A stretch of 21,115 nucleotides of DNA from Enterococcus phage EFAP-1: sequence record FJ792813.1, one strand, 5' to 3'. The notes below the pieces were generated by a model. It saw nothing but the letters and a program-made list of their open reading frames with translations, was not told where the DNA came from and searched no databases. The stretch's first letter is position 1; every line of letters starts with the position of its first letter. Of this stretch, positions 4,356 to 20,829 are shown piece after piece. A program made the translations under genes and the position numbers.

Positions 4356-4391
4356 AGTATACCACAAACGATAGGGGCTTGTAAAGCCCCA
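4356..4391 (-). promoter_or_regulatory. hairpin GGGGCT-TTACA-AGCCCC followed by a TG-extended -10-like TGTGGTATACT, upstream of Tal
   Basis: Perfect 6-bp stem at 4374-4390 directly after the Dit stop, then TTTGTGGTATACT and RBS GGAGG before the Tal ATG. Confidence 0.35.
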
Positions 4392-4396
4392 TATTG

Positions 4397-6478
4397 TTAT
4401 AGGTATGTTTGTTCTAAGATGCAATTAACCTCAGGTTGTAAAGCCCAAGATGATTTTAATGGTAGTATATCATGCTCACCTAAACCGAGTTGGAACTGTT
4501 CCCACTGGTTACCAACAACATTCAATTCATTGTTTATAGCACCATTGATATACACATTACGTGAGTACGTATCTAACTCAACTATATCACCATCTTTAAA
4601 ATAATTTCTAACATTATTAATGTACTTCACATTTAACCAACGTAATTTAGCATCAGTTATCATTACTGTGTTGGCTTTATTGTTTGAGAATTGTTGCACC
4701 CAGAATCCAAAATGTGATAGGTCTGAACTATCTTCAACATTATATACAAATGAATAGTTATCTCCAACCACTACATTATCAAGTTTGTTTATACTCTTGA
4801 TTGAAGCTAAGCGCCATTTGACATATGTTTCAGCACGTTCAATGTTTATTTCAAGTTTAAGACTACCAAACTTCTTTTTATCTAAGATGTATTGGTGTAC
4901 CAACTCACCTTTATACCAACATTCCATGATTGTGGTATTAGCTGATGTTAATGAATCTCTAAAGACTGTACTTATAACAGCTTCACCTCCAGTAGCACGT
5001 ATCATATACTCTAACCTTGCCATAGGTGATGTTTCACGATAATTATTGAATACAAAGCGAATATTTGCTATAAAGTGAGATGTCCTATCGTTTGTGGATG
5101 GTGCTGTAATTGGTATAACACCAGAAGGACCATGCCACACACCTTCTTTTTCGTTTGTGAAGTTTGGTAATACTGAATCAATATCTTTTACCATATTTAA
5201 AGAACCATCAAATAGATTGGGAGTTCCTACATTACCTAGATAGTTAGGATACGTACTTACGAAACCAGTGTTTTCTACCATTCCAGTAGGTAGTTCAGTA
5301 CCCCAAAAATCTAATACCTGTACTGTTTCAGTACGTGATTGTTCTGTATAATCAACTTCTTCTGGGTTACCTATTTGGATTATCTGACCACTCTTATTGA
5401 CCACTCCAACCAATCCATTTTCACCATTCATTTTAAATGAAAAGCGTGGATAGGCTTTGTATGTTCCGTTATTTACAACTTTTAATTCTTCTTTCAGTTC
5501 AATCAACGATTCTTGGTAAGTCATTGGTGTTGTCTGGTCAATTGCAAACATAGGTTCGCATATATCACCACTAACATGGTCACCATATAAACCAAAGTTC
5601 ATTGATAATCCAGTTGTTTCTGGACTTTTGATAGTTATTGTTTTTGCGTACATGGTCCAGTCTTTTACCTCATTAGGCATCTCAATCACATGTGTGTATG
5701 TTTTCCTAACTGGATTGTCTGCCCATTCTATCAATATTAGTTCTGCTGTCTTATCTGGTCGTACCTCGTTGTCTACTACGTTAATACGCACCTTAGCTTG
5801 AAAGCCAACTGTTTGACCTACATTTAAATCTAAATTCATACGTCTGTTGTATGCATCATAGAAGAACCATGCTTGGTGAGGTGTGCTGTTGTCAACATAA
5901 TAGGCTGGTATACCAGCAGTGAAGTCACAACTCAATACATTACTTTCACCTTGTTTTTCAATGGCTAACTGCGCCCAAGGTTTATAGTACTGGTCTTTAC
6001 GCTCAAAATTTGAATCTAATACCATGTTACTATTTTTAGTTATTACATTATTAAAGTTTGAAGCTTCAATCTGATGAGCTAAGGCATCAGGTACATCAAA
6101 TGTTAATGTAAATGGTGTGTACTTTGTGTCTGTTGCGTCATACTCTTCTGTGCCTGTGAATATTGCGTTAAAATATCTATCTGGCATCTGGTCTAGTATA
6201 AGTCTTTTAGGTTCATCACTATTGATAATCTTTACAAGCGCATCCTTGGTTTGTGATACAGTCATACCACTATTGTCTGAAATAATGAAACCATCAATAC
6301 TGATTGCGAAGTCACCTAATCTTGTATTTCTAAAGTGTTTACCATCTGTGTTACCAATCTGAAAAAAATCATTATCTTTTGATAAAAATGGTACGTTAAC
6401 TTTAGCTATTTGAAATAGATGGCTTGTTTCTTTTCCGTCAAAAGTAAATGAGCGTAGAAAATTATAGTTTTCTTTCAT
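4397..6478 (-). CDS. distal tail protein Dit, long 'evolved' form (693 aa)
   Basis: N-terminus MKENYNFLRSFTFDGKETSHLFQIAKVNVPFLS matches the siphovirus Dit (Sipho_tail) N-terminal signature. Position immediately after TMP. Length is more than twice a classical Dit, implying inserted (carbohydrate-binding-like) domains. RBS AAAAGGAG. Confidence 0.7.
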   Translation of the reverse strand: MKENYNFLRSFTFDGKETSHLFQIAKVNVPFLSKDNDFFQIGNTDGKHFRNTRLGDFAISIDGFIISDNSGMTVSQTKDALVKIINSDEPKRLILDQMPDRYFNAIFTGTEEYDATDTKYTPFTLTFDVPDALAHQIEASNFNNVITKNSNMVLDSNFERKDQYYKPWAQLAIEKQGESNVLSCDFTAGIPAYYVDNSTPHQAWFFYDAYNRRMNLDLNVGQTVGFQAKVRINVVDNEVRPDKTAELILIEWADNPVRKTYTHVIEMPNEVKDWTMYAKTITIKSPETTGLSMNFGLYGDHVSGDICEPMFAIDQTTPMTYQESLIELKEELKVVNNGTYKAYPRFSFKMNGENGLVGVVNKSGQIIQIGNPEEVDYTEQSRTETVQVLDFWGTELPTGMVENTGFVSTYPNYLGNVGTPNLFDGSLNMVKDIDSVLPNFTNEKEGVWHGPSGVIPITAPSTNDRTSHFIANIRFVFNNYRETSPMARLEYMIRATGGEAVISTVFRDSLTSANTTIMECWYKGELVHQYILDKKKFGSLKLEINIERAETYVKWRLASIKSINKLDNVVVGDNYSFVYNVEDSSDLSHFGFWVQQFSNNKANTVMITDAKLRWLNVKYINNVRNYFKDGDIVELDTYSRNVYINGAINNELNVVGNQWEQFQLGLGEHDILPLKSSWALQPEVNCILEQTYL

Positions 6479-6513: not shown

Positions 6514-6549
6514 ATTATAACACAAAAGACAACCCTTGTAAAGGGGTTG
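6514..6549 (-). promoter_or_regulatory. hairpin (CAACCC-TTTACAAG-GGGTTG) plus TGTTATAAT between TMP and Dit
   Basis: Hairpin at 6530-6549 directly after the TMP stop, then T-rich tract and TGTTATAAT (plus 6514-6522) 25 nt before the Dit RBS. Confidence 0.35.
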
Positions 6550-6560
6550 CCTTGATGTTT

Positions 6561-9500
6561 TTAAATATAACCTAGATTACGTCTAGTGTTTCGTTCTTGT
6601 GTTCTGTTGAGGTTATTAAGCTCTTTGTTCATCTTCTTACCATCTAATATAACATCTGTGTTTTTAGCTAAGATAGCTTGTAACAATTCGTTCTGTTGTT
6701 GCATTAAGCTAACCAATAATGCCATGTCTTGTGATTCGCCACTGCCACCTACATGGTTGCGTTCGTCTTTGACACCTAACATCTGTTTAGCTTGGTTAAG
6801 TAACGCTAGTGCTCTACCTCGTTTAGATGGTTCAGTTGGTATGATAACCTCAGGGTGACCGTTTTCAGCCAGTGTTGCAATCTGTGGTGTTCTTGCAATA
6901 CCACCATTGAAGTAACCTCTAATACGGTGACCACGTGGACCCCAACCTGATTTACCGTACTGCAAGTCATTTTCCCAATTACTATTGTTGAAGAAAGCTA
7001 ATAATTGGTGATAGCCATTGTTAATGTTACCATAACCTGGAACTTTGTACGCATCAAACGTCTGTGGAATATATTGTAATAATCCTCGTGCTGGGTTACC
7101 ACTCAATGTGTTAATGTCAACCACATCTGGACTTTGAACAATCTTTTCATTACCACCTGATTCACGCATGATTTGAGCAACTAAACCAGCTACCTGTGAA
7201 CTACTGATTGATTGACCCATGTATTTCGCCGCCTTGCGGATAACAGGTGCCCAGTCACCACCAGCACCAGCTGATTCTTCTTCCTCTTTTTTCTTGAATA
7301 ATGCTTTAACCTTTTCAGCAAATGCAGATGTGGCTTTACTACCTAATCCTTTTGCCATGTCAAGTGGGATGTGTGATAGTCCACCTAAGTCCATTGCACC
7401 CATAATTGCATTGCGTGCTAGGTCTAATGGTTTACCTACCCAGTCCATTACATCACTGATTGTTTCTTTTACCTTGTTGATTCCGTTACCTACAAATGAT
7501 TTTGTATTAGACCACATGTCTTTTACACCATCCATGAAACCAGTTCCTTTTTTGTAGAATGGCACACGCCCGCGTTTACCTAAGAAAGCTGATGTTTCAT
7601 GTTCGTTCAATACATGTGTACCTTTAGGTGCGTTCATCATTACGTTACGCCCTTTAGGTATCATTGCGTTACCATCAGGTGTGATTACCATTTCAGCTCC
7701 GCCACCATCATTTACTACCATAGGTCCGCCAACGTGTCCGCCTGAACCTGTTCCTTGTTCATACTGTGGTACATTCCATTTGGCAACTTGTGGTGCGCCA
7801 AATTTTTCTAGTACCCAGTTAGCACCGCCAATGATTCCATTTACTGGTCCACCAATGGCTCTTAATACTCCGTTGAAAATACCTTTAAACGCATTAGTTA
7901 TTGCACCAGCTCCGTTCTTAACTGCTCTCACCATTTGGTTTGGTAAATCAGCAAACCAGCCTGAAACTGTTTTAATTCCTGTACTAAATGTGTTCTTGAT
8001 ACCGTTCCAAAGATTACGAATAGTATTGCTTACTAGGTTTTTCATAGTGTTCGCAATACCACTTATACCATTCTTAAATCCGTCAAAGATATTTTTAGCA
8101 CCATTTGCCCCACTACTAAAGAAGTTCTTGATACCATTCCACATGTTACTTACTGTGTTCTTGATTGCATTCTTGAAATTATTAGCTATACCTTTGATAC
8201 TTCCGCCAAACTTATCAAACAACGCACCCGCACTACTTCCGCCACTTGTAAAGAAGTTCTTGACTCCGTCCCACATGGCTTTCACTGTGCCTTTTACTGA
8301 TGTACCTAGTCCTTTTACACCTTTGAAAATCTTACCAATGAACATTAGGTTGAACCATTCCCAAACGGCTTGGATTCCACCAAAGAAGATACGTTTAATC
8401 GCATCCCACAAACCAGTGAAGTCACCTGTTAATACCATTGAAAAAACATCAATAATACCTGTGATTACATCAACCATTCCATCAATGAACCCCACAACTG
8501 ATTTAACAAATGATTTTACAATTTCAATTGCAATAGCAAAGATTGGTTTCAATAGTGTAAGTAGGTTCATAATTGCCTTACCAATACGGTCACCATTTTG
8601 GTCCCACCAATTGCTTATTTTGTCAAATATCTTACCTAAGGCTTCTGCTAACTCTTTAATAATTGGCATAATCATTGGTAGTAGTTCTTTTACAAAGAAG
8701 TCTAATACTATTTTGAAAATCTTTTGAGCGCCACCAAGTAACTTAGTGATTGCTTTTAAGGCTTTGTCAATTAATGGTATAACTGTTGGAATAATCTCAA
8801 CTGTGATAAAATCAACTACTTTTGTTAATGTTTCAAAGAATCCCGCTGGTGTACCGTCACCAGTACCAAAAGTGAACGCATTTTTGATATAATCTTTAAA
8901 TCTTCCTAATGATTCTTTAATACCTACAATAGCATTAGATACAGTTTTCATTTTTTCGTCTGATAAACCAAGCATGTCTAAGTCAACTAAGCCATTACCT
9001 TCCCATGCTGATTTAAAGTTATAACCCCATGATTTTAACCCACTTAATGATGATTTGAACTTGTTTACTGCACTGTCAATTCTATTTATTCCCTTTATAT
9101 CTAATCCAAGCGCGCCAACATTTATGAGACCCTCACCTTTCCAAATACGTTTAATGTTTTCTGCCCACATACCAACTTTTTTACCAAAGCCTGATAAGTA
9201 ACCCCACGCTTCACCTGTGACTTTTCCAAATACATCAAATGTACCCTTGAATACCTTACCAACCCATGAAAGGTTTTTGGCTAATTCAGGTAGGCTGTTA
9301 CCTAATCCACCCAAGAAAGCTTCAAACCTATTACCTGTGTTTGTTATCTGCTCTTGGAAAGATGGTAGACCCATTTTTTCTAGTGATTTGTTTAGTCCTT
9401 CAATCATCTTGGCTGTACCACGCGTAACAGCTGATTTCATGTTGGCTATTGCAGTACCAAAACCTTGTGTACTATCTTTAGCTATCTTTTCTAATGACTT

Positions 9501-10931
9501 AAGACCGCCACCACCCTCTTTATCCATTTTAACTAAGGCATCTTGGAACTGTCTTACAGATATACTACCTGATGACAATCCTTCTTTTAATTCACCTGTT
9601 GTCATGCCCATTTCTTTTGCTAAGGCATTAAGGGTAGGTCCTAAACCACTGTTAATCATTGAGTTCCACGTTTGCGCATCTACCTTACCATTTGAGAATG
9701 ATTGAGATAACTGAACAACCGCACTATCAACCATCTGTGCATCCCCACCAAAACCTAGGATAGCATCATTCATTGCTTTAAATACGTCAACTGATAATCC
9801 CATATCATCTGTTGATGCTGTTAGCAACTGAACGTTACTCACTGCACTGTCTAAGGCTGTTGGTAACCCACGTGTTGCTTCCTGTAGCTTATCCATGTTC
9901 TTGGTTATATCCCCAGTAGCTACACCCATGTTCTCAAAGGCACGTGTACTATTGTTTAATGTATCAATCCTATTTAATGCACCATCAATTGATGATTTAA
10001 CAGTGTTAAACGCTTTTGAACCAATGTTTGCAACTGCACCTAATGCGCCAGCACCTAAGAATATACCTACACCCTTTGTTGCTGAACCAATAGCAGAACC
10101 AATCTTGCCAAATCCTGACTTGATAGAACTACCTACACCAGAAGCTGTCTTTTTAAGTGATGAAAACACACCATCTAACTTACTAGCACTTGAACTAGCT
10201 TCTTTTGATTCTGTACTTACACCATTCATTGCTTTTTCTGTTTCTTTTAGTTCATCACCTAAAGCATCCACATTCTTTTCACTTTTGCGTGCTTCATTTG
10301 CGTATGCTTGTAGTTTTTGCTGTGCTTCTTTTACCTCTGTTGAGTTAGCACCATACTTCTTAGTTAACTGTGTGACCTCATTTGACTGTTCTCTGACAGC
10401 CTTGTTCATTATCTCTAGGTTGCGTCGTTGACCCTCTTGTTTTGCCTTAACAACGTCTATCTCTGTACCGTGTTTTTTGGCAATAGCAACTTCTTTTTCT
10501 GTTGCCTTGTTATTAGCTTCAACTTGTTTACCGTATTTACTTGAAGAAACCACTTGTTTCTCTAGTGCTGTTGTTGTTTTTGATAACTGTTGGTTGTATG
10601 CATTATACTTAGCTGTTGATTGATTAATTTTAGTGTTAAGATTGTCAACTTGCTTAGATTCAGCACCATATTTCTGAATGGCTTCATCTCTGCGCTTTTG
10701 CAAAATCTTAATCTTTTGTTCTTCTAACCCCATTACTGTGTTTAAGTCTTTTGTTTTTTGACTTAAACCTTGCATACTCTTACCACCGTCATCAAAAGCC
10801 TTTGCATTTGCACGCATAGCACTTTCAGCTTGTCGCATTTTACTTTGTAACTGGTCAAGTGTTTTAATGGTATTGTCTACACCCTCAACACCAATACCAA
10901 ACTTCATATTCCCAATTGGTTTATCTGCCAT
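6561..10931 (-). CDS. tape measure protein with C-terminal lytic transglycosylase (SLT) domain
   Basis: 1456 aa. N-terminal coiled-coil. Central tandem repeats of about 43 aa with periodic W/F (MWDGVKNFF..., MWNGIKNFF..., LWNGIKNTF...). C-terminal QIMRESGGNEKIV...ARGLLQYIPQTF is an SLT-family motif. ATG overlaps the stop of the chaperone -1 frame (TAATG). Confidence 0.9.
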   Translation of the reverse strand: MADKPIGNMKFGIGVEGVDNTIKTLDQLQSKMRQAESAMRANAKAFDDGGKSMQGLSQKTKDLNTVMGLEEQKIKILQKRRDEAIQKYGAESKQVDNLNTKINQSTAKYNAYNQQLSKTTTALEKQVVSSSKYGKQVEANNKATEKEVAIAKKHGTEIDVVKAKQEGQRRNLEIMNKAVREQSNEVTQLTKKYGANSTEVKEAQQKLQAYANEARKSEKNVDALGDELKETEKAMNGVSTESKEASSSASKLDGVFSSLKKTASGVGSSIKSGFGKIGSAIGSATKGVGIFLGAGALGAVANIGSKAFNTVKSSIDGALNRIDTLNNSTRAFENMGVATGDITKNMDKLQEATRGLPTALDSAVSNVQLLTASTDDMGLSVDVFKAMNDAILGFGGDAQMVDSAVVQLSQSFSNGKVDAQTWNSMINSGLGPTLNALAKEMGMTTGELKEGLSSGSISVRQFQDALVKMDKEGGGGLKSLEKIAKDSTQGFGTAIANMKSAVTRGTAKMIEGLNKSLEKMGLPSFQEQITNTGNRFEAFLGGLGNSLPELAKNLSWVGKVFKGTFDVFGKVTGEAWGYLSGFGKKVGMWAENIKRIWKGEGLINVGALGLDIKGINRIDSAVNKFKSSLSGLKSWGYNFKSAWEGNGLVDLDMLGLSDEKMKTVSNAIVGIKESLGRFKDYIKNAFTFGTGDGTPAGFFETLTKVVDFITVEIIPTVIPLIDKALKAITKLLGGAQKIFKIVLDFFVKELLPMIMPIIKELAEALGKIFDKISNWWDQNGDRIGKAIMNLLTLLKPIFAIAIEIVKSFVKSVVGFIDGMVDVITGIIDVFSMVLTGDFTGLWDAIKRIFFGGIQAVWEWFNLMFIGKIFKGVKGLGTSVKGTVKAMWDGVKNFFTSGGSSAGALFDKFGGSIKGIANNFKNAIKNTVSNMWNGIKNFFSSGANGAKNIFDGFKNGISGIANTMKNLVSNTIRNLWNGIKNTFSTGIKTVSGWFADLPNQMVRAVKNGAGAITNAFKGIFNGVLRAIGGPVNGIIGGANWVLEKFGAPQVAKWNVPQYEQGTGSGGHVGGPMVVNDGGGAEMVITPDGNAMIPKGRNVMMNAPKGTHVLNEHETSAFLGKRGRVPFYKKGTGFMDGVKDMWSNTKSFVGNGINKVKETISDVMDWVGKPLDLARNAIMGAMDLGGLSHIPLDMAKGLGSKATSAFAEKVKALFKKKEEEESAGAGGDWAPVIRKAAKYMGQSISSSQVAGLVAQIMRESGGNEKIVQSPDVVDINTLSGNPARGLLQYIPQTFDAYKVPGYGNINNGYHQLLAFFNNSNWENDLQYGKSGWGPRGHRIRGYFNGGIARTPQIATLAENGHPEVIIPTEPSKRGRALALLNQAKQMLGVKDERNHVGGSGESQDMALLVSLMQQQNELLQAILAKNTDVILDGKKMNKELNNLNRTQERNTRRNLGYI
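8113..8279 (-). repeat. DNA-level tandem repeats inside the TMP gene (about 130-nt period)
   Basis: actactaaagaagttcttgataccattccacatgtt versus cacttgtaaagaagttcttgactccgtcccacatggc, encoding the W/F-periodic 43-aa protein repeats. Confidence 0.5.
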
Positions 10932-11200
10932 TAGTCTAGTTCTCCTTTCGCTCTAGCCATTTCCGCTGGTGATAATACTGAACCAAAGAATGACATAGGG
11001 TCTTGCTTCTTCTCTTTTTTAGGGGCTTTCTGATTGTTAAATAAATCTAAAAGAAAGTAGTAATCAGCATTGTTTATCTCTGATAAACTCCAATTACCAC
11101 TTTCTAATAGTTGTCTATATAAGTCATCAAAGTTTTCTAACTGTTCTGCGAATGACGTATTTTCTAATTCTTTTAACTCATCAGCCCCTAGGCTTTTTTT
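10932..11200 (-). CDS. -1 frame extension of the tail assembly chaperone (gpGT-like fusion product)
   Basis: The -1 frame is open from the A7 run for 87 codons (SLGADELKELENTSFAEQLENFDDLYRQLLESGNWSLSEINNADYYFLLDLFNNQKAPKKEKKQDPMSFFGSVLSPAEMARAKGELD) and stops at TAA 10932-10934, overlapping the TMP ATG. Confidence 0.55.
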
Positions 11201-11499
11201 CCTTCGTCATTGCTTCCCATTGCATTTGAGAAAATATCTTCAATCGTAGGCATTAGGTCATCAGCTGTAATTGAATCTTGAATTGCATCAAATGTAACAC
11301 GTGGGTCCATGAACATATCAGCTACTAATTGAATCATTTCATCAATCATTTGTAATTCTGACATTTCAACTTCACCAGCTTCAACTTTTTCAACTGTTGC
11401 ATGGAATTTAATTAGTTCACGCATTGAACGAGTTGAAATTGATTTTTGTTTGACTGTAAAACTTTTTCCTTCTTCATTTTGTAGTGTAATTTTAATCAT
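11188..11499 (-). CDS. tail assembly chaperone (gpG-like)
   Basis: 103 aa, acidic. Located between MTP and TMP. Likely ATG at 11497-11499 with RBS GGAGGA 7 nt upstream (the track start at 11514 is TTG). Ends ...NDEGKKA with the slippery run at its 3' end. Confidence 0.65.
   Translation of the reverse strand: MIKITLQNEEGKSFTVKQKSISTRSMRELIKFHATVEKVEAGEVEMSELQMIDEMIQLVADMFMDPRVTFDAIQDSITADDLMPTIEDIFSNAMGSNDEGKKA
11194..11200 (-). other. programmed -1 ribosomal frameshift slippery site A_AAA_AAA (followed by G) in the chaperone gene
   Basis: GGA AAA AAA GCC TAG in the zero frame. Seven consecutive A residues, two codons before the gpG stop, open the 87-codon -1 frame. Confidence 0.55.
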
Positions 11500-11518: not shown

Positions 11519-11571
11519 TTTATTTTTCTTACTAAAGATATTATAGCATAAACACTGGTGGTTGTGGGTGT
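11519..11571 (-). promoter_or_regulatory. conserved late promoter-like element, copy E1 (upstream of chaperone/TMP block)
   Basis: Minus strand ACACCCACAA-ccaccagtgttta-TGCTATAAT-ATCTTTAGTAAGAAAAATAAA, then RBS GGAGGA. Confidence 0.55.
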
Positions 11572-11589
11572 TGGTGAAACTAGTTCAAA

Positions 11590-11625
11590 TAAAAAGAGTA
11601 CCTACACTTAAGTAAGTACCCCTTC
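11590..11625 (-). terminator. hairpin plus T-run after the major tail protein gene
   Basis: Minus strand GGGGTACTTAC ttaagt GTAGGTACTC followed by TTTTTATTT. Confidence 0.45.
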
Positions 11626-11629
11626 TATA

Positions 11630-11702
11630 TTATGATAATTCAATTGTCACAGATGTTTCATCTGTTGTTATTTCACCCACTAGCGGTGCTTTACTCACTG
11701 GG
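11630..11702 (-). CDS. +1-frame C-terminal extension of the major tail protein (PVSKAPLVGEITTDETSVTIELS)
   Basis: The +1 frame is open from CCA at 11699-11701 to TAA at 11630-11632. The peptide is almost identical to the +1-frame peptide after the MCP gene, and the nucleotide differences are mostly synonymous in this frame. Confidence 0.5.
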
Positions 11703-12260
11703 AGAAACGTTGTTTAACTTGTCAACAAATTTATCTAATGTTAATTTCTCACCAGATACGCCTGACATGTAAGCAATACCACGGTCATCTGTTACAAATG
11801 AACCTTCAATTGTTTCTGTGTTTGGTTCTGTTCCGCCAGATTCGGTTGTGTTTAATGCAATTTCTGGGTGGCTGAAACGACCTTTAGTTAAACCAAAGTA
11901 CATTTCTTTACCGTCTGCGCCGTCTGCTACGAATGTAACTGATACGTATGGTGCTTCTGTATCTTCGCCAACTGATGCAATGCCTTCTTCATCACGTGTA
12001 ATACCCAAGATTTTTTCATATACTCCACCTTTGTATAAGTCAAAGACGTTTAATGTAGCTGATAACTCACCAACACCTTTAGCAGATACCCAAATTGGAA
12101 CGTTTGAAGCATAAACAGTTGTTTGTTCTGCTGAAATTCCTGAAATAGAAGCTTCAATAGTACCGCCACCTGTTTTATCAATTACATGTTTTTCAATTGT
12201 TTTTCCATCTTCGCCACCACGTACTGAAATGATAGCCTTTTTAAACCCTACTACTGCCAT
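11691..12260 (-). CDS. major tail protein
   Basis: 189 aa, MAVVGFKKAIISVRGGEDG... Start ATG 12258-12260 with RBS AAAGGAG. Position between tail completion genes and the chaperone. Composition typical of siphovirus MTPs. Confidence 0.8.
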   Translation of the reverse strand: MAVVGFKKAIISVRGGEDGKTIEKHVIDKTGGGTIEASISGISAEQTTVYASNVPIWVSAKGVGELSATLNVFDLYKGGVYEKILGITRDEEGIASVGEDTEAPYVSVTFVADGADGKEMYFGLTKGRFSHPEIALNTTESGGTEPNTETIEGSFVTDDRGIAYMSGVSGEKLTLDKFVDKLNNVSPSE

Positions 12261-12276
12261 ATTAAAATCTCCTTTG

Positions 12277-12332
12277 TTTTTATATTTTCTTACTAGAATA
12301 ATTATATCATTAATCAACCTGTTTTAGGGTGT
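12277..12332 (-). promoter_or_regulatory. conserved late promoter-like element, copy E3 (upstream of MTP)
   Basis: Minus strand ACACCCTAAA-acaggttgattaa-TGATATAAT-TATTCTAGTAAGAAAATATAAA, then RBS AAAGGAG. Confidence 0.55.
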
Positions 12333-12335
12333 CAC

Positions 12336-12701
12336 TTAGACAACCCTTTGACTGATTGTATAACGTTTGATAACCCTACGAGCGTCTTCTAGGTCTGGGT
12401 CGTAGCTTTGTTGTGATAATACGCACTGAACATTATCTGCACGCATTGTCTTGTCAATATCAAAGTAATACTTTTCAACTTCTTTCAAGTCCTCACACCA
12501 CAAGTCTACCTGTACATGTGTTACAAAATAATTAGGGTCTGCGCTTGCATATTCTGTGTACCGTCCGTCAAGTTCTACCACTCTACCAACTGGTAGTTTA
12601 GGTAGTGTTTGGAATTCTGTTGGCACTTCATTAGTAAACCAGTTGACTTCTGGGTGTGATTGCTCTAGTGTTTCAGCTACTTGTAATACTGGTAATCTCA
12701 T
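12336..12701 (-). CDS. tail completion / tail terminator protein
   Basis: 121 aa. Position immediately upstream of MTP. ATGA overlap with the upstream gene. Confidence 0.55.
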   Translation of the reverse strand: MRLPVLQVAETLEQSHPEVNWFTNEVPTEFQTLPKLPVGRVVELDGRYTEYASADPNYFVTHVQVDLWCEDLKEVEKYYFDIDKTMRADNVQCVLSQQSYDPDLEDARRVIKRYTISQRVV

Positions 12702-13105
12702 TTTAAAAACGCCTCCTGTAATGCTTTTTGAATGATTGATGCAACTTCATCTTCTATACTATTCATGGTTTTTTGTATAAAACCTTGTGGTCTTTGTTTA
12801 ATTGTGCCTAATTCTGGAAAATGTGCCATCCATGCCACATCATCATCAAAGCCAACCTCCGCAACATGCTTGTTCTTGCTTGCTTTACTCATTACTATAT
12901 GGTCCCGCATGTGTTCTTTCTTGTAATCCTGAGCATCTTTACTATACTTTGTACCGTTAAAACGTGGTGTATTACGTTTTAACTCTTGCATACTAGCTTC
13001 ACCAGCTGTGTTTATAGCTTTACTTACAATCTGGTCCGCATTCTTTCCAGCTTTCTGTAGTCGTTTATATGCCTGTGAAAAATCAACATAATTCTTACCA
13101 CTCAC
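12698..13105 (-). CDS. HK97 gp10-family head-tail component
   Basis: 135 aa with ...HFPELGTIKQRPQGFIQKT..., similar to the HK97 gp10 family signature. ATGA overlaps on both sides. Confidence 0.65.
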   Translation of the reverse strand: MSGKNYVDFSQAYKRLQKAGKNADQIVSKAINTAGEASMQELKRNTPRFNGTKYSKDAQDYKKEHMRDHIVMSKASKNKHVAEVGFDDDVAWMAHFPELGTIKQRPQGFIQKTMNSIEDEVASIIQKALQEAFLK

Positions 13106-13437
13106 TTCTTCACCCTCTTACATACAAGGGTTGTAAAGTCACGTTGGAAACTACCTTCTAACACTTGAACAATATCATAGTTAACTCCGTTATATACAAC
13201 ACGCATACTATTGTCAATTTGAAAATGTTGTTCATATCTGATAATAAAGTTTGTTGTATCCTCTAACACTGTACCTAGTGATTCTTTATAGTCTTTAAAG
13301 TATTGTTCTTTCACTGAACACCAGATACTGGATTTTGTTTCCCAATCTGTGACCCACTCATAATATTCGTTCTTATGAGTGGTTTTCTCTTGAATGTCAA
13401 TACGTTTATCAAGTCGTTGTGTTGCTACCTGTGCCAT
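13102..13437 (-). CDS. head-tail joining (head closure) protein
   Basis: 111 aa. W-rich pattern (YYEWVTDWETKSSIWCSV) and position are typical of SPP1 gp16/Phage_H_T_join proteins. Confidence 0.6.
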   Translation of the reverse strand: MAQVATQRLDKRIDIQEKTTHKNEYYEWVTDWETKSSIWCSVKEQYFKDYKESLGTVLEDTTNFIIRYEQHFQIDNSMRVVYNGVNYDIVQVLEGSFQRDFTTLVCKRVKK

Positions 13438-13708
13438 CTTGTAACCCCCTTAGTTGATGAATCATAGCTACAATAGTAAATGGTACTTGTTGTTGAAGTG
13501 CGCTAGTTGCTGGTACTCTGTTTTCATACCAGAGTGAAACCAACATGAACTGTAGGGTGTTAAAGCGTTCATCATCTGGCGCTTCTGTTAATTCAATAGC
13601 ACCAAGTATAAACATTTCACTAGTTGTAATTAGTCCTGTAATATATTCATCATCAAAATTATGGTCAAGTCTTAAATTGTTTTTAACTTGTTCAAGTGTC
13701 AATGTCAT
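13409..13708 (-). CDS. head-tail connector (gp6-like, Phage_connect_1)
   Basis: 99 aa. MTLTLEQVKNNLRLDHNFDDEYITGLITTSE matches the gp6-like N-terminal signature (L..K..LR.D.d.DD..I..LI..a). Confidence 0.65.
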   Translation of the reverse strand: MTLTLEQVKNNLRLDHNFDDEYITGLITTSEMFILGAIELTEAPDDERFNTLQFMLVSLWYENRVPATSALQQQVPFTIVAMIHQLRGLQDGTGSNTTT

Positions 13709-13723
13709 TTACATTACCTCCTT

Positions 13724-13942
13724 TTATACTTCTGGTGATGTTGGACTTACTGTTTCTTTTGTTTTGAATGCTGGTAAATCTACTTTTTCAGATTCTAGCT
13801 TTCCATCTTCCACTGCTGTTGCTTGATAGTCACCTTTTCCATATTGTGTATTAGGTGTTAGTCCTGTTAATTTTGCTGGTGATGTAACCCCAGTTAATAC
13901 TTTAGAACCATCTTTTTTGTAGATATTAAATACTTTAACCAT
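13724..13942 (-). CDS. small FN3/Ig-like domain protein (possible head decoration/fibre)
   Basis: 72 aa from ATG 13940-13942 with RBS AAAGGAG at 8-nt spacing. LTGLTPNTQY...ATAVEDG resembles fibronectin-III/Ig-like folds found on phage capsids. The track's longer start (TTG at 13984) has no RBS. Confidence 0.45.
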   Translation of the reverse strand: MVKVFNIYKKDGSKVLTGVTSPAKLTGLTPNTQYGKGDYQATAVEDGKLESEKVDLPAFKTKETVSPTSPEV

Positions 13943-14000
13943 TGTGTTATCTCCTTTATAATATAATAAGAGGATAGAGCGCAAGCCCTACCCTCCTTGG

Positions 14001-14082
14001 TTAACTCAATTCAATTGTTGCTGATGTTTCAGTAGTTGTTATCTCACCAACTAGCGGTGCTTTACTCACCGCCGACACTGGG
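14001..14082 (-). CDS. +1-frame C-terminal extension of the major capsid protein (PVSAVSKAPLVGEITTTETSATIELS)
   Basis: The +1 frame is open from CCA at 14079-14081 to TAA at 14001-14003. See MTP extension. Both genes share the CCC_AGT_G context upstream. Confidence 0.5.
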
Positions 14083-15318
14083 TGTCAAAGTGATGAACTT
14101 ACCAGCGTTTTTATCAACGATTTCACAGTCAAAGCGCATTGCTACTGCTAATACTTGACCGTAGTATTGGTGTTCTACCCAACGGACAGTAGTGTCTACA
14201 CGGTCAAAGAATACCGCGAACGCGTCAGGTTGTCCTAAGAATGCTACCATGTCACCATCTTTAGCTCCAATTAATTTGTCAGCTAAAACAGTTACTTTGC
14301 GACCTAGTAAAGCTTTACCAGATTGTGCTTTGATGTCATCTTCTAATAAGTAACGTCCGTTAGCGTCTTTCATTTGGTCTAAAGCGTTGAAGAATGATTG
14401 TGAAACGATAAATTCTAAGTTGTAAGCTGGGTCAAAACCAGTGTTAACTTGCGTTTTCAAGTCATCAATAGATTTCGCAGCTACTGCTGTAGCTTCTTTT
14501 AATTTAGCAACAATAGCTTTGTTAGCTGTGTTCAAACCTTGACGTTGAATGTGACGTGCAATGATTCCAGATAAGTCATCATCAGAATCTTGTAAAGCTT
14601 CTTCTGCTACTGCAATTTGACCACGGTAAGTTTCAACTTCATATTTGACTTCTTCGAAAGCTGGTCCTTCTAAATCAGGGTTCTTTTTAAGTTCTTCAAC
14701 TGTTGCCAATACTGCTTCATTAGCTTTCAAGATTGGATATTTACCCATTGCATGTGTTACTTTTTGACGTGTAATCATGTTACGTAAATCAACAACTGTT
14801 TCAGGTAACATTTTAGCTTTTGTGATAATTTCTTCTGGGATAATTGCAGAAGCATCCGCAGACTTAACACCTTCAAATGATTCAGGCAATGCACGTGTTT
14901 CTTTTGAGCGTAAGTATTCTAAGAATCCACGCACTTCTTTATTTTCTACTTCTTTTCCATCTAAAATAACTTTCTCCATGTTTTCTTCTCCTTTTTGCTC
15001 TAGTGAGCGTTTTTCTGTTTTAGGTTCTTCCTTTGGTTCCTCTTTAGGTTCTTCAACATCTTGTTCAGTTTTTGCTGAACGTTCTTCTTTTGTTTCTTCC
15101 TTATCTTCTTTAGGTTCTTCCTTTGGTTCGTCCTTAGCATCTTCTGCTTTAGGTTCTTCCTCTGGTTTCTCCTCTTCTTTATTATCAACTGCACGTTCTT
15201 CTTCTTTAGGTTTTTCCTCATCTAAAGCTTTAATTTGTTGCATTACTTTTTCAGCTTCATCAAGTTTACCTTCTGATAATAAAGTTTGTGCTTGTTCCAT
15301 AAGTTCTTGCCGTGACAT
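14062..15318 (-). CDS. major capsid protein (HK97 type) with N-terminal delta/scaffolding-like domain
   Basis: The C-terminal 280 aa have HK97-fold-like composition. The N-terminal 130 aa are a coiled-coil plus an E/K/P-rich low-complexity region (EEKPKEEE..PKEEPKEEPK). There is no separate scaffold gene between protease and MCP. ATG 15316-15318 with RBS AGGGG (the track start is GTG at 15324). Confidence 0.85.
   Translation of the reverse strand: MSRQELMEQAQTLLSEGKLDEAEKVMQQIKALDEEKPKEEERAVDNKEEEKPEEEPKAEDAKDEPKEEPKEDKEETKEERSAKTEQDVEEPKEEPKEEPKTEKRSLEQKGEENMEKVILDGKEVENKEVRGFLEYLRSKETRALPESFEGVKSADASAIIPEEIITKAKMLPETVVDLRNMITRQKVTHAMGKYPILKANEAVLATVEELKKNPDLEGPAFEEVKYEVETYRGQIAVAEEALQDSDDDLSGIIARHIQRQGLNTANKAIVAKLKEATAVAAKSIDDLKTQVNTGFDPAYNLEFIVSQSFFNALDQMKDANGRYLLEDDIKAQSGKALLGRKVTVLADKLIGAKDGDMVAFLGQPDAFAVFFDRVDTTVRWVEHQYYGQVLAVAMRFDCEIVDKNAGKFITLTPSVGGE
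15010..15200 (-). repeat. tandem coding repeats (TTTAGGTTCTTCCTTTGGTTC-type) inside the MCP delta domain
   Basis: Repeated units at about 15019-15040, 15108-15130 and 15150-15175 encode PKEEPKEE repeats. Alternative frames give K-rich and S-rich phantom ORFs. Confidence 0.5.
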
Positions 15319-15336
15319 ACGCACACCCCTTAGTTT

Positions 15337-15389
15337 TTTATTTTTCTTACTAAAGATAGTATATCACGAACAAGGGAACTTGTGGGTGT
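15337..15389 (-). promoter_or_regulatory. conserved late promoter-like element, copy E2 (upstream of MCP)
   Basis: Minus strand (TA)ACACCCACAA-gttcccttgttcg-TGATATACT-ATCTTTAGTAAGAAAAATAAA, then RBS AGGGG. The upstream motif overlaps the protease stop codon. Confidence 0.55.
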
Positions 15390-15952
15390 TACTTGTATAA
15401 CCCTAATAGGTTTAATTCTAATTCTAGTTTACGCTTTTGAAATTGTTTTGCTTCCTCTTCCATTTGTTCTAATGAACGTTTAGCCACACTAACATCTGTG
15501 TCTGCATATGCTGGAATTGAAACCAGTGAGATTTCAAATAGTGATTTGATTTGTTTGATAGTTCTGTGGTTGATTCCATCAGCTTTGCGCCATTCATCTT
15601 TAGCAACTGTGAATCCAAACGAACACTGACTAAGGTCACCGCGTTTAACTAGTTCCATTGCATCACGTCCAACTGATGTATCAGGAAGTAATGCTCTAAA
15701 TTTTAACCCAATGTCGTCAACCTCTAATGTTAATGTTCCACTCTTTGTCCGTCCTAATAACTTACTTGAATCATGGTCAACGAACATACGAACGTCACTC
15801 ATATCAACACCATCTAAAGCACGCTTATCAATGAATTCAATGAATCCACCTAAGTTCTCACTAGGTGAATCAAACTTTAAAGCGTACCCCTCAACAATGT
15901 TGTCTGTTACTGTTTCAACTTGCTGTAGTTGTCTAATTTCAAGATTCTTCAC
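15389..15952 (-). CDS. prohead maturation protease (HK97 family, S78/U35)
   Basis: 187 aa. Position between portal and MCP. GTG start at 15950-15952 with RBS AAGGAGTG. 14-nt overlap with the portal end. Confidence 0.8.
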   Translation of the reverse strand: MKNLEIRQLQQVETVTDNIVEGYALKFDSPSENLGGFIEFIDKRALDGVDMSDVRMFVDHDSSKLLGRTKSGTLTLEVDDIGLKFRALLPDTSVGRDAMELVKRGDLSQCSFGFTVAKDEWRKADGINHRTIKQIKSLFEISLVSIPAYADTDVSVAKRSLEQMEEEAKQFQKRKLELELNLLGLYK

Positions 15953-17328: not shown

Positions 17329-19053
17329 TTATACACCAAATCCAAATTTTCCTTCTTCAATCAGTTCTTTAAAGCTAATATACTCATAATCAAAGTACAT
17401 TGCTTCACTCATTGCATTAATTAAGGCATCTATAGGGTCAATTTTGTTACGATTCATAGCCTTTTCAATAGCTATATTGTCCGCAAACTCACGCATAATA
17501 GCATTATATACCGCTCTAGTTAGTAGTGGGTTATCTGTTTGAATCACTTCACCCTTGATAATTGCATCACGTAAGTACTTTGTAGGTGCATTTAAATACT
17601 GGATGCGCTGTGGTACTTCAATTAGTTTGTCTGGAAAGTCCTTGCTTAAGTTGATTACAGATGGCGTTGCTTGGTGTCCGTCATAGTAAATACCTTGTAG
17701 GTCTAAGTCATACTCTGTTATGAACTCTCTTATCCATTCGCACATATCTTCATGGTCTATCAAACCATCTGGTCGCTGACTGATGTTTACTAGTCCTAAG
17801 TTCTCATACTGTCTATACGGTATCTTATCTTTTATCTGTTTAGCTTCAATACCACCCACAGAAGCTATAAAAGCGTGACTGTCAAGAAGTAGCTTGCGTT
17901 CCTCTGCAATAGGTATCACCCAGCTAACTGCCGTCATATCGCCTGTACGTGCCAAATCAAGACCTATATAAACTGGTCTACCTTTTATATCATATGGTTT
18001 TGTTTGCTTAACAGCTTCCCAAGATTCTTTATCAATGAAACTGTCTTGTGATGATTGTACCCAGAAGTTCATCTCTTTAGTTAGCCAACCACTCATGTCA
18101 CCCTTAGCCTTATACTCTGCTAATGAGTTAACCTTATGTTCGTACATTGTTTCATGTAACTGTGCATTCTCAAATAATGGGTTGCTCTTAATCCAGTTAG
18201 CTTCATCATCTACTTCACTTAGGCTATCCATTTCCCAACACAAGGCAAGGTATGCATCAGCTTCCACTTCCTCATTAAGTAGCTTAGTTATAAATGGGTA
18301 TTCTATGCTGTGCATTGGTCCATTCAAGTTTTTGGTTGTTGTACTAATAATCAAAATTAAACCTTGTAATTGTTGTGACTGTGAACTTTCTAATACCTCA
18401 ATCATGGCTGTGCTTTTAGCTTCTCCATACTCATCAAGTACACCACATAGCACGTCTAGTCCGTCTAAGCTATCTACATCACTTGATAGTGGCTTAACCG
18501 TTGATTCATCTTCTAAGTGTTCAATGTCTTTCTTATTAACTTTGGTTACTTTCCTTGTTCCATCACTTACTGCACGCAATGCCTTTAGCTGTGATTTTAA
18601 CATGTTGAATACAATACCAGCTTGGTCTTTAGTGTTAGCCGCCGCTACAATCTGTCTTGAAGCGTTTGGATACTGACCTAATAAGAACTCATATAATGAG
18701 ATACCAGCAACCAGAATTGACTTACCGTTTTTACGTGCTAGGCTGATATATACTTTTCTGAATCTACGCATCTTGTTTTTCTTTTTGCGCCAACCATATA
18801 TCATAGCAATAATAAACTTCTGGAACTTAGCTAGTTTATTTGTCTTACGTGTCTTTGGGTCTGGTAGCATTTCAATAAATGCAACTGGTTCTAGTGCTTC
18901 TTTAGGGTCATAGTAGTATGGATAATCTGGGTCTAGTGACCGCTCTAAGTCCTTCTCATGACGTCTAATGGCTTGTTTAATCTTATTACCTATTGGTATT
19001 TGATTATACCTTACGTAATTGATGTAATCAGCTACAAAATCTATATTATTCAT
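17329..19053 (-). CDS. terL: terminase large subunit
   Basis: 574 aa. Walker A-like LARKNGKS. Terminase_1-type ATPase/nuclease architecture. RBS AAGGAGG 7 nt before the ATG. TGCTATAAT lies just upstream. Confidence 0.9.
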   Translation of the reverse strand: MNNIDFVADYINYVRYNQIPIGNKIKQAIRRHEKDLERSLDPDYPYYYDPKEALEPVAFIEMLPDPKTRKTNKLAKFQKFIIAMIYGWRKKKNKMRRFRKVYISLARKNGKSILVAGISLYEFLLGQYPNASRQIVAAANTKDQAGIVFNMLKSQLKALRAVSDGTRKVTKVNKKDIEHLEDESTVKPLSSDVDSLDGLDVLCGVLDEYGEAKSTAMIEVLESSQSQQLQGLILIISTTTKNLNGPMHSIEYPFITKLLNEEVEADAYLALCWEMDSLSEVDDEANWIKSNPLFENAQLHETMYEHKVNSLAEYKAKGDMSGWLTKEMNFWVQSSQDSFIDKESWEAVKQTKPYDIKGRPVYIGLDLARTGDMTAVSWVIPIAEERKLLLDSHAFIASVGGIEAKQIKDKIPYRQYENLGLVNISQRPDGLIDHEDMCEWIREFITEYDLDLQGIYYDGHQATPSVINLSKDFPDKLIEVPQRIQYLNAPTKYLRDAIIKGEVIQTDNPLLTRAVYNAIMREFADNIAIEKAMNRNKIDPIDALINAMSEAMYFDYEYISFKELIEEGKFGFGV

Positions 19054-19424
19054 ATGTATACCTCCTTGTTTCTATTATAGCACAAATAAAAAGACTTAGG
19101 TCATGAGTTTATCCAAAGGGGATAACAAACTTACCTAAGTCAATTGGTCGCACAGCAACCGTTATTAAATGATTAAGTGTTGTTATGTGGTTGGCGGACC
19201 GTCCACATACGGACTGCCTCACAACACTTAATAGAGTTTTGCTCACTTGGTTAAGGAGGTAAGAGCGTTTCCTTGTAAATAGACCCTCACATCTATTTAC
19301 TAACATGTTACTAACATGTCCGCAACTATTGCCGTAGTTGCTCCTGAATAATACTACCCAATATTATTCTAATCTACAAATCATCTGGAAGGCGTTTTCC
19401 GTAAATACATTATACCACAACTTA
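19054..19424 (-). other. 370-bp structured noncoding spacer between terS and terL
   Basis: No credible ORF. The only ORF (65 aa, 19109-19306) has no RBS and starts inside a repeat. GC-rich relative to the flanks. Tandem TTACTAACATG x2 (19298-19319), palindrome TAACATGTTA, stem-loop GCAACTA-ttgcc-TAGTTGC (19322-19341), inverted repeat AAGTGTTGT/ACAACACTT (19167-19215). Promoter-like TCAACA-N17-TGTGGTATAAT on the minus strand at about 19396-19430. Confidence 0.4.
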
Positions 19425-19898
19425 CTAACTTTGTTGACGTAACTTAATCAACTGTCCTAGTGGGTCATTGCTTTCTTTTGTTTTTTCAGCTGGTGCCACT
19501 ATTTTCAGTCTTGCGTTAATTGTCAAACCAAGGTCAGCAGTTGCGGACTTCAACTCTTTACTATATGAGTTCATGATGTCAACACGTGGATTCTTCTTAC
19601 CATCTGGTGTGATTTCTCCTTCTTCCATCAATCGCTCTGTTGCTTCACTATATAGGTAAGTGTAATTACAGTAACGAACCATTGTTTGTTGGTCCAATTC
19701 TGAAATAGGTAGGTCACCTATAAAGTGTGAGATACGTTCCCATTCAGGAAAAGCACCTTGCAATAATCCTTGTGGATAATAACTAAAGTCTAACTTCTCA
19801 TAGTTGTAAAGTGCTTCTTCCTCTTTCTTACGTTCCTCTTGTTGCTCTGTTGTGAGGTTGCCAACTTGGGCATTAATTAATTTTCTTGGTCTACCCAT
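19425..19898 (-). CDS. terS: terminase small subunit (P27 family)
   Basis: 157 aa. MGRPRKLI... plus the overall P27-family pattern. RBS AAGGAGGTG. Immediately upstream of terL, in a region that also carries an HNH gene. Confidence 0.8.
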   Translation of the reverse strand: MGRPRKLINAQVGNLTTEQQEERKKEEEALYNYEKLDFSYYPQGLLQGAFPEWERISHFIGDLPISELDQQTMVRYCNYTYLYSEATERLMEEGEITPDGKKNPRVDIMNSYSKELKSATADLGLTINARLKIVAPAEKTKESNDPLGQLIKLRQQS

Positions 19899-20457: not shown

Positions 20458-20829
20458 TTACCCCTTGCGGTGGCGGAAGCTGGCAGAATGTTCTTCTTTA
20501 TTGTGACACTCTTGACATATACTTTCTAGGTTATCTATATCCAACCTATGTTCCCAACCCATTGTGGTCCGTACCTCTTGCCTATGATGCACTATGGTTG
20601 CTATGCTTGCATTACATACTTCACACATTGGATTCATTGATAGCTTTCTTGCTCTCACGTTTCGCCACTGTGTTGATGCATAGAAGTCCGCATACTTCTT
20701 GTTGTCTGGTGAATGTCTTACTTGCTTGTTGTATGTTCGTTGTGTATTACCTTTGTGTTCTTCACAGTATACTTCTGGTATGTCTACATACTCCCTGCAG
20801 TGTGCAACCTTACACCGTCGCTTAGGCAT
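20458..20829 (-). CDS. HNH endonuclease (terminase-associated)
   Basis: 123 aa from ATG 20827-20829. CxxC...HH...CxxC with CQECHNKEEH is an HNH zinc-finger motif. Start overlaps the stop of the upstream ORF (TAATG). Confidence 0.8.
   Translation of the reverse strand: MPKRRCKVAHCREYVDIPEVYCEEHKGNTQRTYNKQVRHSPDNKKYADFYASTQWRNVRARKLSMNPMCEVCNASIATIVHHRQEVRTTMGWEHRLDIDNLESICQECHNKEEHSASFRHRKG

Follow-up and report, generated by a model that had tools for sequence, protein, structure and literature searches.

Three copies of one compact cassette, each standing ahead of genes of the virion-building module, probably act as promoters in the structural arm of Enterococcus phage EFAP-1. They lie in a stretch of 21,115 nucleotides (nt) of this phage (sequence record FJ792813.1, one strand, 5' to 3'), called the window below. 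The copies are E2, ahead of the major capsid gene, E3, ahead of the major tail (tube) gene, and E1, ahead of the chaperone and tape-measure genes; each consists of a C-rich box, a 13-nt spacer, a TG-extended -10 element and an A-rich leader. In form they are of the extended -10 family, an ordinary and conserved kind of phage regulation, and they appear to be undescribed. In those parts of the literature open to text searching, neither the promoters or transcripts of Efquatrovirus, the genus to which the window belongs, nor the motif strings are found beyond in-silico predictions for vB_EfaS-271; a genus-level paper of 2026 makes no mention of promoters or frameshifts.

A degenerate pattern of the cassette, ACACCC-NN-AA-N13-TGNTATANT-N3-T-N-TAGTAAGAAAA, applied with up to 3 mismatches permitted, picks out exactly three sites in the window, all on the minus strand and all with 0 mismatches: 11524-11571, 12285-12332 and 15342-15389. 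It has 0 matches in 100 dinucleotide shuffles, none being expected by chance. A repeat search returned the same family (D3: 11519-11572, 12280-12333, 15337-15390), with E1 and E2 83% identical over 54 nt. The three minus-strand copies reported in the first-pass annotation of this DNA were thus recovered by both routes. Their parts are as follows.

15337-15389, minus strand: cassette E2, right after the prohead-protease stop and ahead of the major capsid gene; box ACACCCACAA at 15389-15380, -10 element TGATATACT at 15366-15358, leader ATCTTTAGTAAGAAAAATAAA at 15357-15337, ATG at 15318.
12279-12332, minus strand: cassette E3, after the stop of the tail-terminator gene and ahead of the major tail (tube) gene; box ACACCCTAAA at 12332-12323, -10 element TGATATAAT at 12309-12301, leader TATTCTAGTAAGAAAATATAAA, ATG at 12260.
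11519-11571, minus strand: cassette E1, about 25 nt past the tail-tube terminator and ahead of the chaperone and tape-measure genes; box ACACCCACAA at 11571-11562, -10 element TGCTATAAT at 11548-11540, leader at 11539-11519, ATG at 11499.

Alignment of the three copies shows ACACCC, TG-TATA-T and TAGTAAGAAAA to be invariant, whereas the 13 nt separating box from TG are unrelated from one copy to another. At all three a TG lies one base upstream of the TATAAT-like hexamer (TGATATACT in E2, TGATATAAT in E3, TGCTATAAT in E1), and this extended -10, noticed at the outset, is conserved in every relative examined. The TRTG motif of the Gram-positive -16 region reads TATG in E1 and AATG in E3, with CGTG in E2 as a near match; the consensus of this region over 40 sequences is TTnaTG. 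The hexamer 17 base pairs (bp) upstream of the -10 is CCCACA in E1 and E2 and CCCTAA in E3, and none of the three has a TTGACA-like -35 hexamer 16-18 bp upstream. The non-canonical box first described as CCCACA in place of TTGACA is thus real and conserved, in the form CCCTAA at E3. The distance from -10 to start codon is 39-40 nt throughout. The leader begins at the predicted +1 (the A/G of TAGTAAG, about 7 nt past the -10) and ends at a strong Shine-Dalgarno sequence; folded from the predicted +1, the three leaders are no more stable than shuffled sequences (z 0.6, -0.7, 0.7). It had been called identical in all copies: it is common to all, and identical over 21 nt in E1 and E2, but E3 has a 1-nt insertion. 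No repeats common to E1-E3 lie upstream of the box in the alignment, and a hairpin common to the three was ruled out, local pairings differing copy by copy.

The window is that of a virulent E. faecalis siphovirus of the genus Efquatrovirus. Megablast aligns 100% of its length with vB_Efa_VP16 at 94.7% identity, and of 133 matching records 131 are named Enterococcus phages. We therefore set aside the earlier framing of the window as part of a prophage, together with its talk of induction: the nearest matches are VP16 and about 130 other lytic Efquatrovirus-like phages, and neither term applies to a virulent phage. The complete genomes of VP16, LoneStar and IME-EFm1 consist of two divergent arms, one for packaging, head, tail and lysis and the other for replication and early functions, and no integrase is annotated in any of the three.

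To follow the cassettes through relatives we used the orthologous intergenic regions of VP16, IME-EF4, Ef6.4, Q69, VEsP-2, EFap02, DELF1 and IME-EFm1 and of Efquatrovirus-like IMG/VR contigs; scanning IMG/VR with the -10 and leader pattern also returned many unrelated AT-rich contigs by chance, and only Efquatrovirus-like loci were therefore used. The motif scan of related phages that had been proposed with the first description found the cassette at all three orthologous sites throughout the genus. The consensus of 40 distinct sequences anchored on the -10 is aACaCCCacAA, variable positions, TTnaTGaTATAAT, N3 and T-N-TAGTAAGAAAA. Within the genus, sequences differ in the spacer immediately past the box and downstream of the leader. 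DELF1 and IME-EFm1, whose structural module is only about 68% identical to that of the window, keep TGnTATAAT at all three sites and, at the same 17-bp spacing, carry CCCACA at E2, AACACA at E3 and TACACA at E1; their leader is intact at E3 only. The nnCACA core is a decayed form of the box surviving in distant E. faecium phages. That the blocks persist while the spacer drifts, between copies as between orthologues, argues for selection on the blocks and not for recent neutral duplication.

We then listed every TGnTATAAT-like site in the three complete genomes. The sites divide into two classes according to arm. Promoters of the early arm have TTGACA or TTGACT, 17 bp, TGnTATAcT and a common leader of their own, TAATTCATAAGTTAAGAGGAGG; TTGAC(A/T) promoters are confined to this arm. 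On the structural arm an extended -10 is accompanied by CCCACA, CCCTAA, CACACA, TACACA or AACACA at the -35 position, in at least five promoters along the arm. Among TGnTATAhT sites, nnCACA stands at the -35 position in 5 of the 25 that VP16 has (binomial p 6.5e-8) and in 9 of the 31 of IME-EFm1 (binomial p 1.8e-15), mostly on the structural arm.

VP16 26992, 38430, 38693 and 40361, minus strand: early-arm TTGAC(A/T) promoters.
IME-EFm1 22607, 32504, 38033 and 38382: early-arm cassettes.
VP16 4816: first box promoter of the structural arm, about 250 nt outside the window.
VP16 7168: box promoter in the terS-terL gap.
VP16 E2, E3 and E1: the remaining structural-arm box promoters listed.

The early cassette, with TTGAC(A/T), 17 bp, TGnTATAcT and the leader TA(A/G)TTCATAAGTTAAGAGGAGGAA, is kept between E. 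faecalis and E. faecium phages. Box-class sites also occur at two places inside the early arm. One is in the sense direction (VP16 30399, LoneStar 25578, IME-EFm1 27710, all on the minus strand), with TACACA or CACACA, TGTTATAcT and the leader ..AGTAGTAAAAATAAA..GGAGG; it precedes a 235-aa protein without assigned function (phrog_6479) and genes toward the DNA polymerase, and may be a "middle" promoter. The other (VP16 33801, LoneStar 29108, IME-EFm1 31449, all on the plus strand) runs antisense into early genes, with AACACA, 17 bp and TGATATAAT, back to back with an early TTGACA promoter; kept in all three genomes, it could make late antisense RNA. The structural regions of the unrelated Enterococcus phages phiEf11 and VD13 have no intergenic promoters of this kind, so the architecture is lineage-specific.

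Hairpins stand at the other ends of two of the units, and at two junctions further along the arm.

13968-13997, minus strand: terminator-like hairpin downstream of the capsid gene with its +1 extension (see below), 13-bp stem, -20.3 kcal/mol, z -3.6.
11590-11627, minus strand: intrinsic terminator downstream of the tail-tube gene with its +1 extension; the hairpin itself (about 11627-11596) has -18.8 kcal/mol, z -5.2.
6514-6553, minus strand: tape-measure/Dit junction, with a terminator-like hairpin at 6553-6526 whose loop, TTTACA, lies 17 bp upstream of TGTTATAAT.
4356-4390, minus strand: Dit/Tal junction, with hairpin GGGGCTTTACAAGCCCC at 4390-4374 whose loop, TTTACA, lies 18 bp upstream of TGGTATACT.

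The U-tract of the capsid hairpin is interrupted, so termination there is probably partial. The tail-tube terminator has a good U-tract, followed by TCTTTTTATTT, and in relatives its position is taken by this hairpin or by one unrelated to it (AGAAGAGC..GCTCTTCTTTTTT); that non-homologous hairpins occupy the same place supports a functional terminator there. The pairing of hairpins with TGnTATAaT elements at the tape-measure/Dit and Dit/Tal junctions, another of the initial observations, was confirmed, the TTTACA loop lying 17-18 bp upstream of the -10; the TGTTATAAT promoter matches the consensus, with the loop as its -35, at 11 of 12 positions. The same hairpin-loop -35 arrangement is present at the tape-measure/Dit junction in VP16 and LoneStar.

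We propose that E1, E2 and E3 act as promoters inside the structural (late) arm, where their TG-extended -10, fixed 17 bp to the box and fixed 39-40 nt to the ATG are all promoter-like. The -10 is the consensus Gram-positive extended form (TRTGnTATAAT), which host RNA polymerase with sigma-A would read. They belong to a phage-specific class marked by a C-rich/CACA(A) element that sits exactly at the -35 position with a 17-bp spacer, and to each is joined a 5' leader that is short, A-rich and without structure. In combination with the hairpin terminators the cassettes would form promoter-gene-terminator units, that is, a punctuated operon. The genes concerned, all on the minus strand and in an order confirmed with Pfam, include the following.

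19425-19898, minus strand: terS.
15389-15952, minus strand: S78 prohead protease, upstream of E2.
14062-15318, minus strand: HK97-type capsid protein, after E2.
11691-12260, minus strand: Phage_TTP_1 tail tube, after E3.
11188-11499, minus strand: Phage_TAC_19 tail assembly chaperone, after E1.

E2 would lift the capsid gene above the portal and protease genes upstream of it, and the capsid terminator would lower the low-copy connector genes, leaving them dependent on read-through. E3 would raise tail-tube output in a unit ended by the tail-tube terminator. The E2-capsid and E3-tail tube units would then supply, at high output, the virion proteins that are the two most abundant. The initial suggestion that the cassettes mark the three most abundant structural products survives for capsid and tail tube but not for E1, which follows a strong terminator and precedes the low-copy chaperone and tape measure; most likely, E1 restarts transcription past the tail-tube terminator, for these genes and those beyond.

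A parallel to such a unit is found in T7, which has its own single-subunit polymerase recognizing a 23-bp promoter and in which the class III promoter phi10 and the gene 10 leader are followed by the T-phi terminator. As in phi10-gene 10-T-phi, a repeated promoter with leader stands ahead of the capsid gene and a terminator behind it; E1-E3, however, follow the host sigma-A pattern, and no phage polymerase gene is present.

In form the cassettes belong with the extended -10 promoters of the host. Of the mapped start sites of transcription in E. faecalis, 96% carry tgnTAtaaT and only about 4% a -35 (Michaux et al. 2020, PMC7724050). The cassettes share with these sigma-A promoters the TG-extended -10, the lack of a canonical -35 and a purine at +1 about 7 nt downstream, and differ from them in the added conserved CACA(A)/ACACCC box and initial transcribed sequence, neither of which is described in that survey.

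Several points weigh against this proposal. A simple sigma-70 scan does not call E1-E3, because the hexamer at -35 matches TTGACA in only 3 of 6 positions (CCCACA) or 1 of 6 (CCCTAA). The E3 box is looser than the others, being CCCTAA in the window and ACGACC in EFap02. The searchable literature holds no transcript 5'-end data for Efquatrovirus, and promoter activity is deduced here from sequence. Finally, the C at the third -35 position and the leader are conserved beyond the needs of a plain extended -10, and an additional reader, a protein or one acting at the RNA level, may therefore be required.

A protein reader is a real possibility, albeit an unlikely one. On this account sigma-A polymerase alone is inefficient, and the CACA(A)/ACACCC box is recognised by an early protein of the phage, which brings about a switch from the TTGACA early promoters to box-type middle/late promoters; the protein could be a class II activator or a sigma appropriator like MotA/AsiA. 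In T4 middle promoters, a MotA box (..TGCTT.A, centred at -30) replaces the -35 next to a sigma-70 -10, and sigma is appropriated by MotA/AsiA. The same combination is seen here, a host-type (in T4 often extended) -10 with a class-specific box at the -35 position (nnCACA or CCCTAA, 17 bp), and it would define a temporal class set apart from early promoters with their consensus -35, but the box sequence is another one and no MotA/AsiA homologue was recognised in annotations or scans; most early proteins of the phage are without assigned function, and an unrelated factor may be among them.

The distribution of the box suits such a reader. It is class- and phage-specific, nnCACA being enriched at 17 bp on the structural arm and TTGACA on the early arm; its one sense and one antisense site in the early arm are what a regulon would have; and the cassettes are lineage-specific, as their absence from the phiEf11 and VD13 structural regions indicates. 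The C at hexamer position 3 is kept across genera though sigma region 4 prefers G, which suggests another reader, and the survey of host promoters reports no such box motif (PMC7724050). If the box does need a phage factor, that factor would be a new modifier of host polymerase.

Candidates for the part did not emerge. Neither the LoneStar Pharokka nor the IME-EFm1 RefSeq annotation contains a sigma factor, Alt, RinA, ArpU, LtrC or other regulator. Nor were regulator families found when 30 early-arm or unassigned VP16 ORFs (open reading frames) and 10 late-arm ORFs of the window were scanned, 20 against PHROG and 20 against Pfam, about 20 small early ORFs being left without individual scan; matches were limited to "unknown function", coiled-coil noise, DUF1351, DUF3310, HNH, terS and structural families. 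The search of the early region for an Alt-like activator or sigma factor, as proposed earlier, thus returned none, and with no recognisable DNA-binding protein among these ORFs an activator loses ground. Since extended -10 promoters without a -35 are usual in E. faecalis (PMC7724050), the missing -35 is no evidence for one either. A related phage has a latent period of 8 min (PMC7503890), which leaves little time for a cascade.

The specific form of activation first put forward, a late activator of the TP901-1 Alt/phi31 type, fails on both features compared, activator gene and promoter layout. In the TP901-1 Alt/phi31 and RinA/ArpU/LtrC systems of Gram-positive temperate phages, a phage-encoded activator serves late promoters with a poor -35, and one late promoter lies upstream of terS with the activator gene adjoining (PMC3152322, PMC3753634); the TP901-1 layout also includes repeats for activator binding upstream of -32. 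The poor or absent -35 is shared. The layout is not: here the phage is virulent and has several internal promoters, at least five with a box and without common repeats upstream of it, and no such gene was found. Upstream of terS, where a RinA/ArpU/LtrC-type activator might be sought, the ORFs of the window are HNH and small ORFs with no family match.

It is improbable that only the extended -10 matters, with box and leader alike through copying or recombination and without a role in recognition, whether the unit served as a portable cassette for expression or its parts as linkers in the exchange of modules. Reuse of a promoter with its leader does occur in this phage group, as in the repeated early cassette TTGAC(A/T)-N17-TGATATACT-TAATTCATAAGTTAAGAGGAGG (VP16 38430, 38693), and the genes flanking the cassettes are mosaic among relatives, with alternative tail-tube genes, extension types and terminators. 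A copied cassette would, however, bring its spacer along, and the spacers are unrelated among copies whose blocks are identical. Moreover, the nnCACA core is kept at orthologous sites in the phages of about 68% identity, where neutral intergenic sequence is randomised. Elements of a comparable kind are the PeSL (early promoters with a stem-loop) of T4-type phages, which lie in hyperplastic regions and are linked to gene shuffling. They too are short repeated intergenic cassettes, and the -35 in a hairpin loop at the tape-measure/Dit and Dit/Tal junctions is a further likeness; E1-E3 differ in having no common hairpin and in occupying fixed orthologous sites of the structural module.

It is more doubtful still that the blocks act at the RNA level in the read-through transcript, as a processing or stability site or as a translational operator; this seems very improbable. 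Part of its support comes from E2.

15381-15359 with 15324-15301, minus strand: predicted pairing, in read-through RNA, between the capsid start region and a stretch of E2 reaching from the 3' end of the box through the spacer into the -10.

This pairing, which takes in the capsid start codon, has -27.6 kcal/mol against -18.0 +/- 3.1 in shuffles (z -3.1). The Ef6.4/Q69 clade has another capsid N-terminus and another spacer, and yet these pair too (CCTTGTTCATG with CATGAACAAGG; z -3.4, -2.4). At E3, read-through RNA folds into a hairpin whose 3' arm is supplied by ACACCC and whose other arm comes from the last part of the gene upstream. But no structure is common to the three copies: significant start-region pairing is lacking at E3 and E1, and the E2 region does not pair in VEsP-2, DELF1 and IME-EFm1. 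There is no Rfam match, the window holding neither known RNA families nor tRNAs, and the strongest invariant block is TRTGnTATAAT at promoter-like spacing, for which no RNA role is obvious. Alongside promoter function the pairing could be a second layer of control at E2; a transcript started there is without its 5' arm. Evidence from two clades among many comparisons is suggestive only, and what it suggests is that the pairing favours capsid translation from E2-initiated mRNA or couples it to protease translation on read-through.

An alternative sigma, phage- or host-encoded, had also been offered in the first-pass annotation and would fit a non-canonical element common to one temporal class at the -35 position, but it is almost certainly not what the cassettes serve, since the -10 is the exact extended consensus of housekeeping sigma-A, of the same type as in early and host promoters, and annotations and scans hold no sigma-like gene.

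If host-type internal promoters are indeed the function of the cassettes, these amount to a testable map of structural-protein stoichiometry in a 41-kb virulent phage without a recognisable regulator; the ratios would be set by the two classes of promoter together with internal promoters, and by terminators flanking the genes of the two most abundant proteins. Efquatroviruses rank with the therapeutic candidates most often isolated against E. faecalis, and the cassettes, with promoter, 5' untranslated region and ribosome-binding site in about 75 bp, are compact portable parts for the engineering of Enterococcus and its phages.

The repeat search that returned the cassettes also revealed similarity between the 3' ends of the two genes behind E2 and E3 (family D4: 11620-11698 in the tail-tube gene and 13991-14069 in the capsid gene, 80% identity over 79 nt). 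The putative frameshift and split-domain arrangement found there is more unusual than the promoter cassettes.

14001-14082, minus strand: putative +1 frameshift site of the capsid gene, ACA_CCC_A, then a 26-codon extension, VSAVSKAPLVGEITTTETSATIELS, and a stop.
11630-11702, minus strand: putative +1 frameshift site of the tail-tube gene, CCC_A, then a 22-codon extension, VSKAPLVGEITTDETSVTIELS, and a stop.
13724-13942, minus strand: small ORF of 72 aa after the capsid terminator, FN3-like but without strands A and B.
VD13 3346-3501 and 6320-6464, in the sequence examined: split-FN3 positions.
phiEf11 2397-2471 and 4485-4501, in the sequence examined: split-FN3 positions.

The codons at the shift site are ACA_CCC_AGT (capsid) and CCC_AGT (tail tube) in the window and CCC_TAG for both genes in six relatives, and in these seven phages a +1 frame of 21-26 codons is open and conserved for both genes. 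Its product is ..KAPLVGEITT(T/D)ETS(A/V)TIELS and a stop in the window, and STPPVVGQVTPADTSVSIEL(S/T) and a stop in the relatives. Between VP16 and IME-EF4, 5 of 7 sense changes, counted by eye, are synonymous in the +1 frame, and hairpins are predicted downstream of both sites. Listeria phage PSA has +1 sites of two forms, CCC_UGA in tsh and ACA_CCC with a pseudoknot in cps (reviewed in PMC5009743). In both cases capsid and tail-tube genes finish with a CCC proline shift site, past which the +1 frame adds a C-terminal extension, and the likeness goes into detail, ACA_CCC here being as in cps and CCC_stop in the relatives as in tsh; the difference is that the extension here is short, at about 21-26 residues that correspond to FN3 strands A-B, and that a separate gene encodes the remainder of the domain. 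We take the capsid and tail-tube 3' ends to be putative PSA-type sites of programmed +1 frameshifting, which appears not to have been described for Efquatrovirus.

The 72-aa ORF has no Pfam match and no PDB sequence match; a word-indexed homologue search gave 2 matches and an exhaustive profile search 128 relatives. Of 110 related domain instances, 87 start at residue 1 of their protein, and in canonical FN3 repeats the match starts about 30-40 residues into the domain, at strand C. Contiguous versions have extension-like sequence ahead of the match, e.g. MGVSNITDTSATITVDEEDSR-TFNIYDNNG... When extension and small ORF were placed in one chain and modelled with AlphaFold, a single sequence was uninformative (predicted local distance difference test score, pLDDT, 42); with the profile-search alignment the mean pLDDT was 86.4, the extension formed strands A and B with pLDDT >90, and all top PDB matches of the joined model were FN3 domains, over the full length. 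The joined extension and small ORF thus model as one complete FN3 domain.

Other Enterococcus phages have the same split with different recoding. VD13 has -1 sites after its capsid and tail genes (..VTEDSVTLTW.. and a stop), followed by MAKTYNIYQDG... In phiEf11 there is a -1 site, A_AAA_AAA, on the head gene, and strands A-B are part of the tail gene's own frame; two head-protein bands, a -1 shift and a 21-aa extension have been reported for this phage (PMC5221750). Neither extension nor small ORF is present in DELF1 or IME-EFm1.

In a vB_EfaS-271 lysate the small protein is abundant by mass spectrometry, with 94% coverage (PMC7503890). We infer that frameshifting would put the A-B hairpin on some capsid and tail-tube subunits, to which the C-G half-domain would dock by fold complementation, although a cis AlphaFold model cannot prove assembly in trans; a split FN3 combined with frameshifting could account for the decoration of head as well as tail by a single small Ig-like protein. 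It is unlikely that ribosomes hop or read through from the capsid extension into the small ORF: the two are in different frames with stops between them, take-off and landing codons that match are not conserved, and no ORF follows the tail-tube extension. In phiEf11, however, a single stop codon separates the tail gene from the FN3-half gene, which continues in the same frame. Covariation of extension type with small-ORF type per genome was ruled out by EFap02, which has the window-type extension on the capsid gene and the other type on the tail-tube gene and thus shows that there is no strict covariation. In EFap02 the tail gene is without the CCC shift site, and the small FN3-half ORF (2083-2440), unannotated, is broken by an extra A (A8 for A7), which could be a sequencing error or a natural frameshift.

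The several strands may be drawn into one account, doubtful when taken as a whole. In it the box marks a middle/late regulon under a switch resembling sigma appropriation, in which an early protein of a Firmicute siphovirus would redirect sigma-A polymerase away from the TTGACA promoters; read-through mRNA would hide the capsid start codon at E2, leaving only cassette-initiated mRNA freely translated; and the +1 sites would attach the A-B half of FN3 to some capsid and tail-tube subunits, where the C-G half would dock as decoration.

The chaperone gene (10931-11250, minus strand) ends GGA_AAA_AAA_GCC_TAG, and the -1 frame runs on without a stop for about 85 codons, as far as the start of the tape-measure gene. 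Tail chaperones usually have such a -1 frameshift of the G/GT type, and with this one the window has three recoding sites.

Some features of the rest of the window may be added. Upstream of terS lies an HNH endonuclease ORF (20458-20841, minus strand), which is annotated in LoneStar; VP16 is without any annotation over the corresponding 765-bp stretch. The gap between terS and terL (19053-19425, about 370 nt) holds two TGnTATAAT sites and no ORF; that of VP16 holds a promoter of the CACACA class, and the cos region may be there. The N-terminal 150 or so residues of the capsid protein are degenerate E/K/P-rich repeats (15011-15216; family D1, six copies); a capsid N-terminal repeat region has been proposed as a fused scaffolding domain in a 2026 paper on phage Abitsa. 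In the tape-measure gene, 7966-8289 (plus coordinates) contains three repeats spaced 132 nt apart (family D2), and periodic repeats of this type are common in tape-measure proteins.

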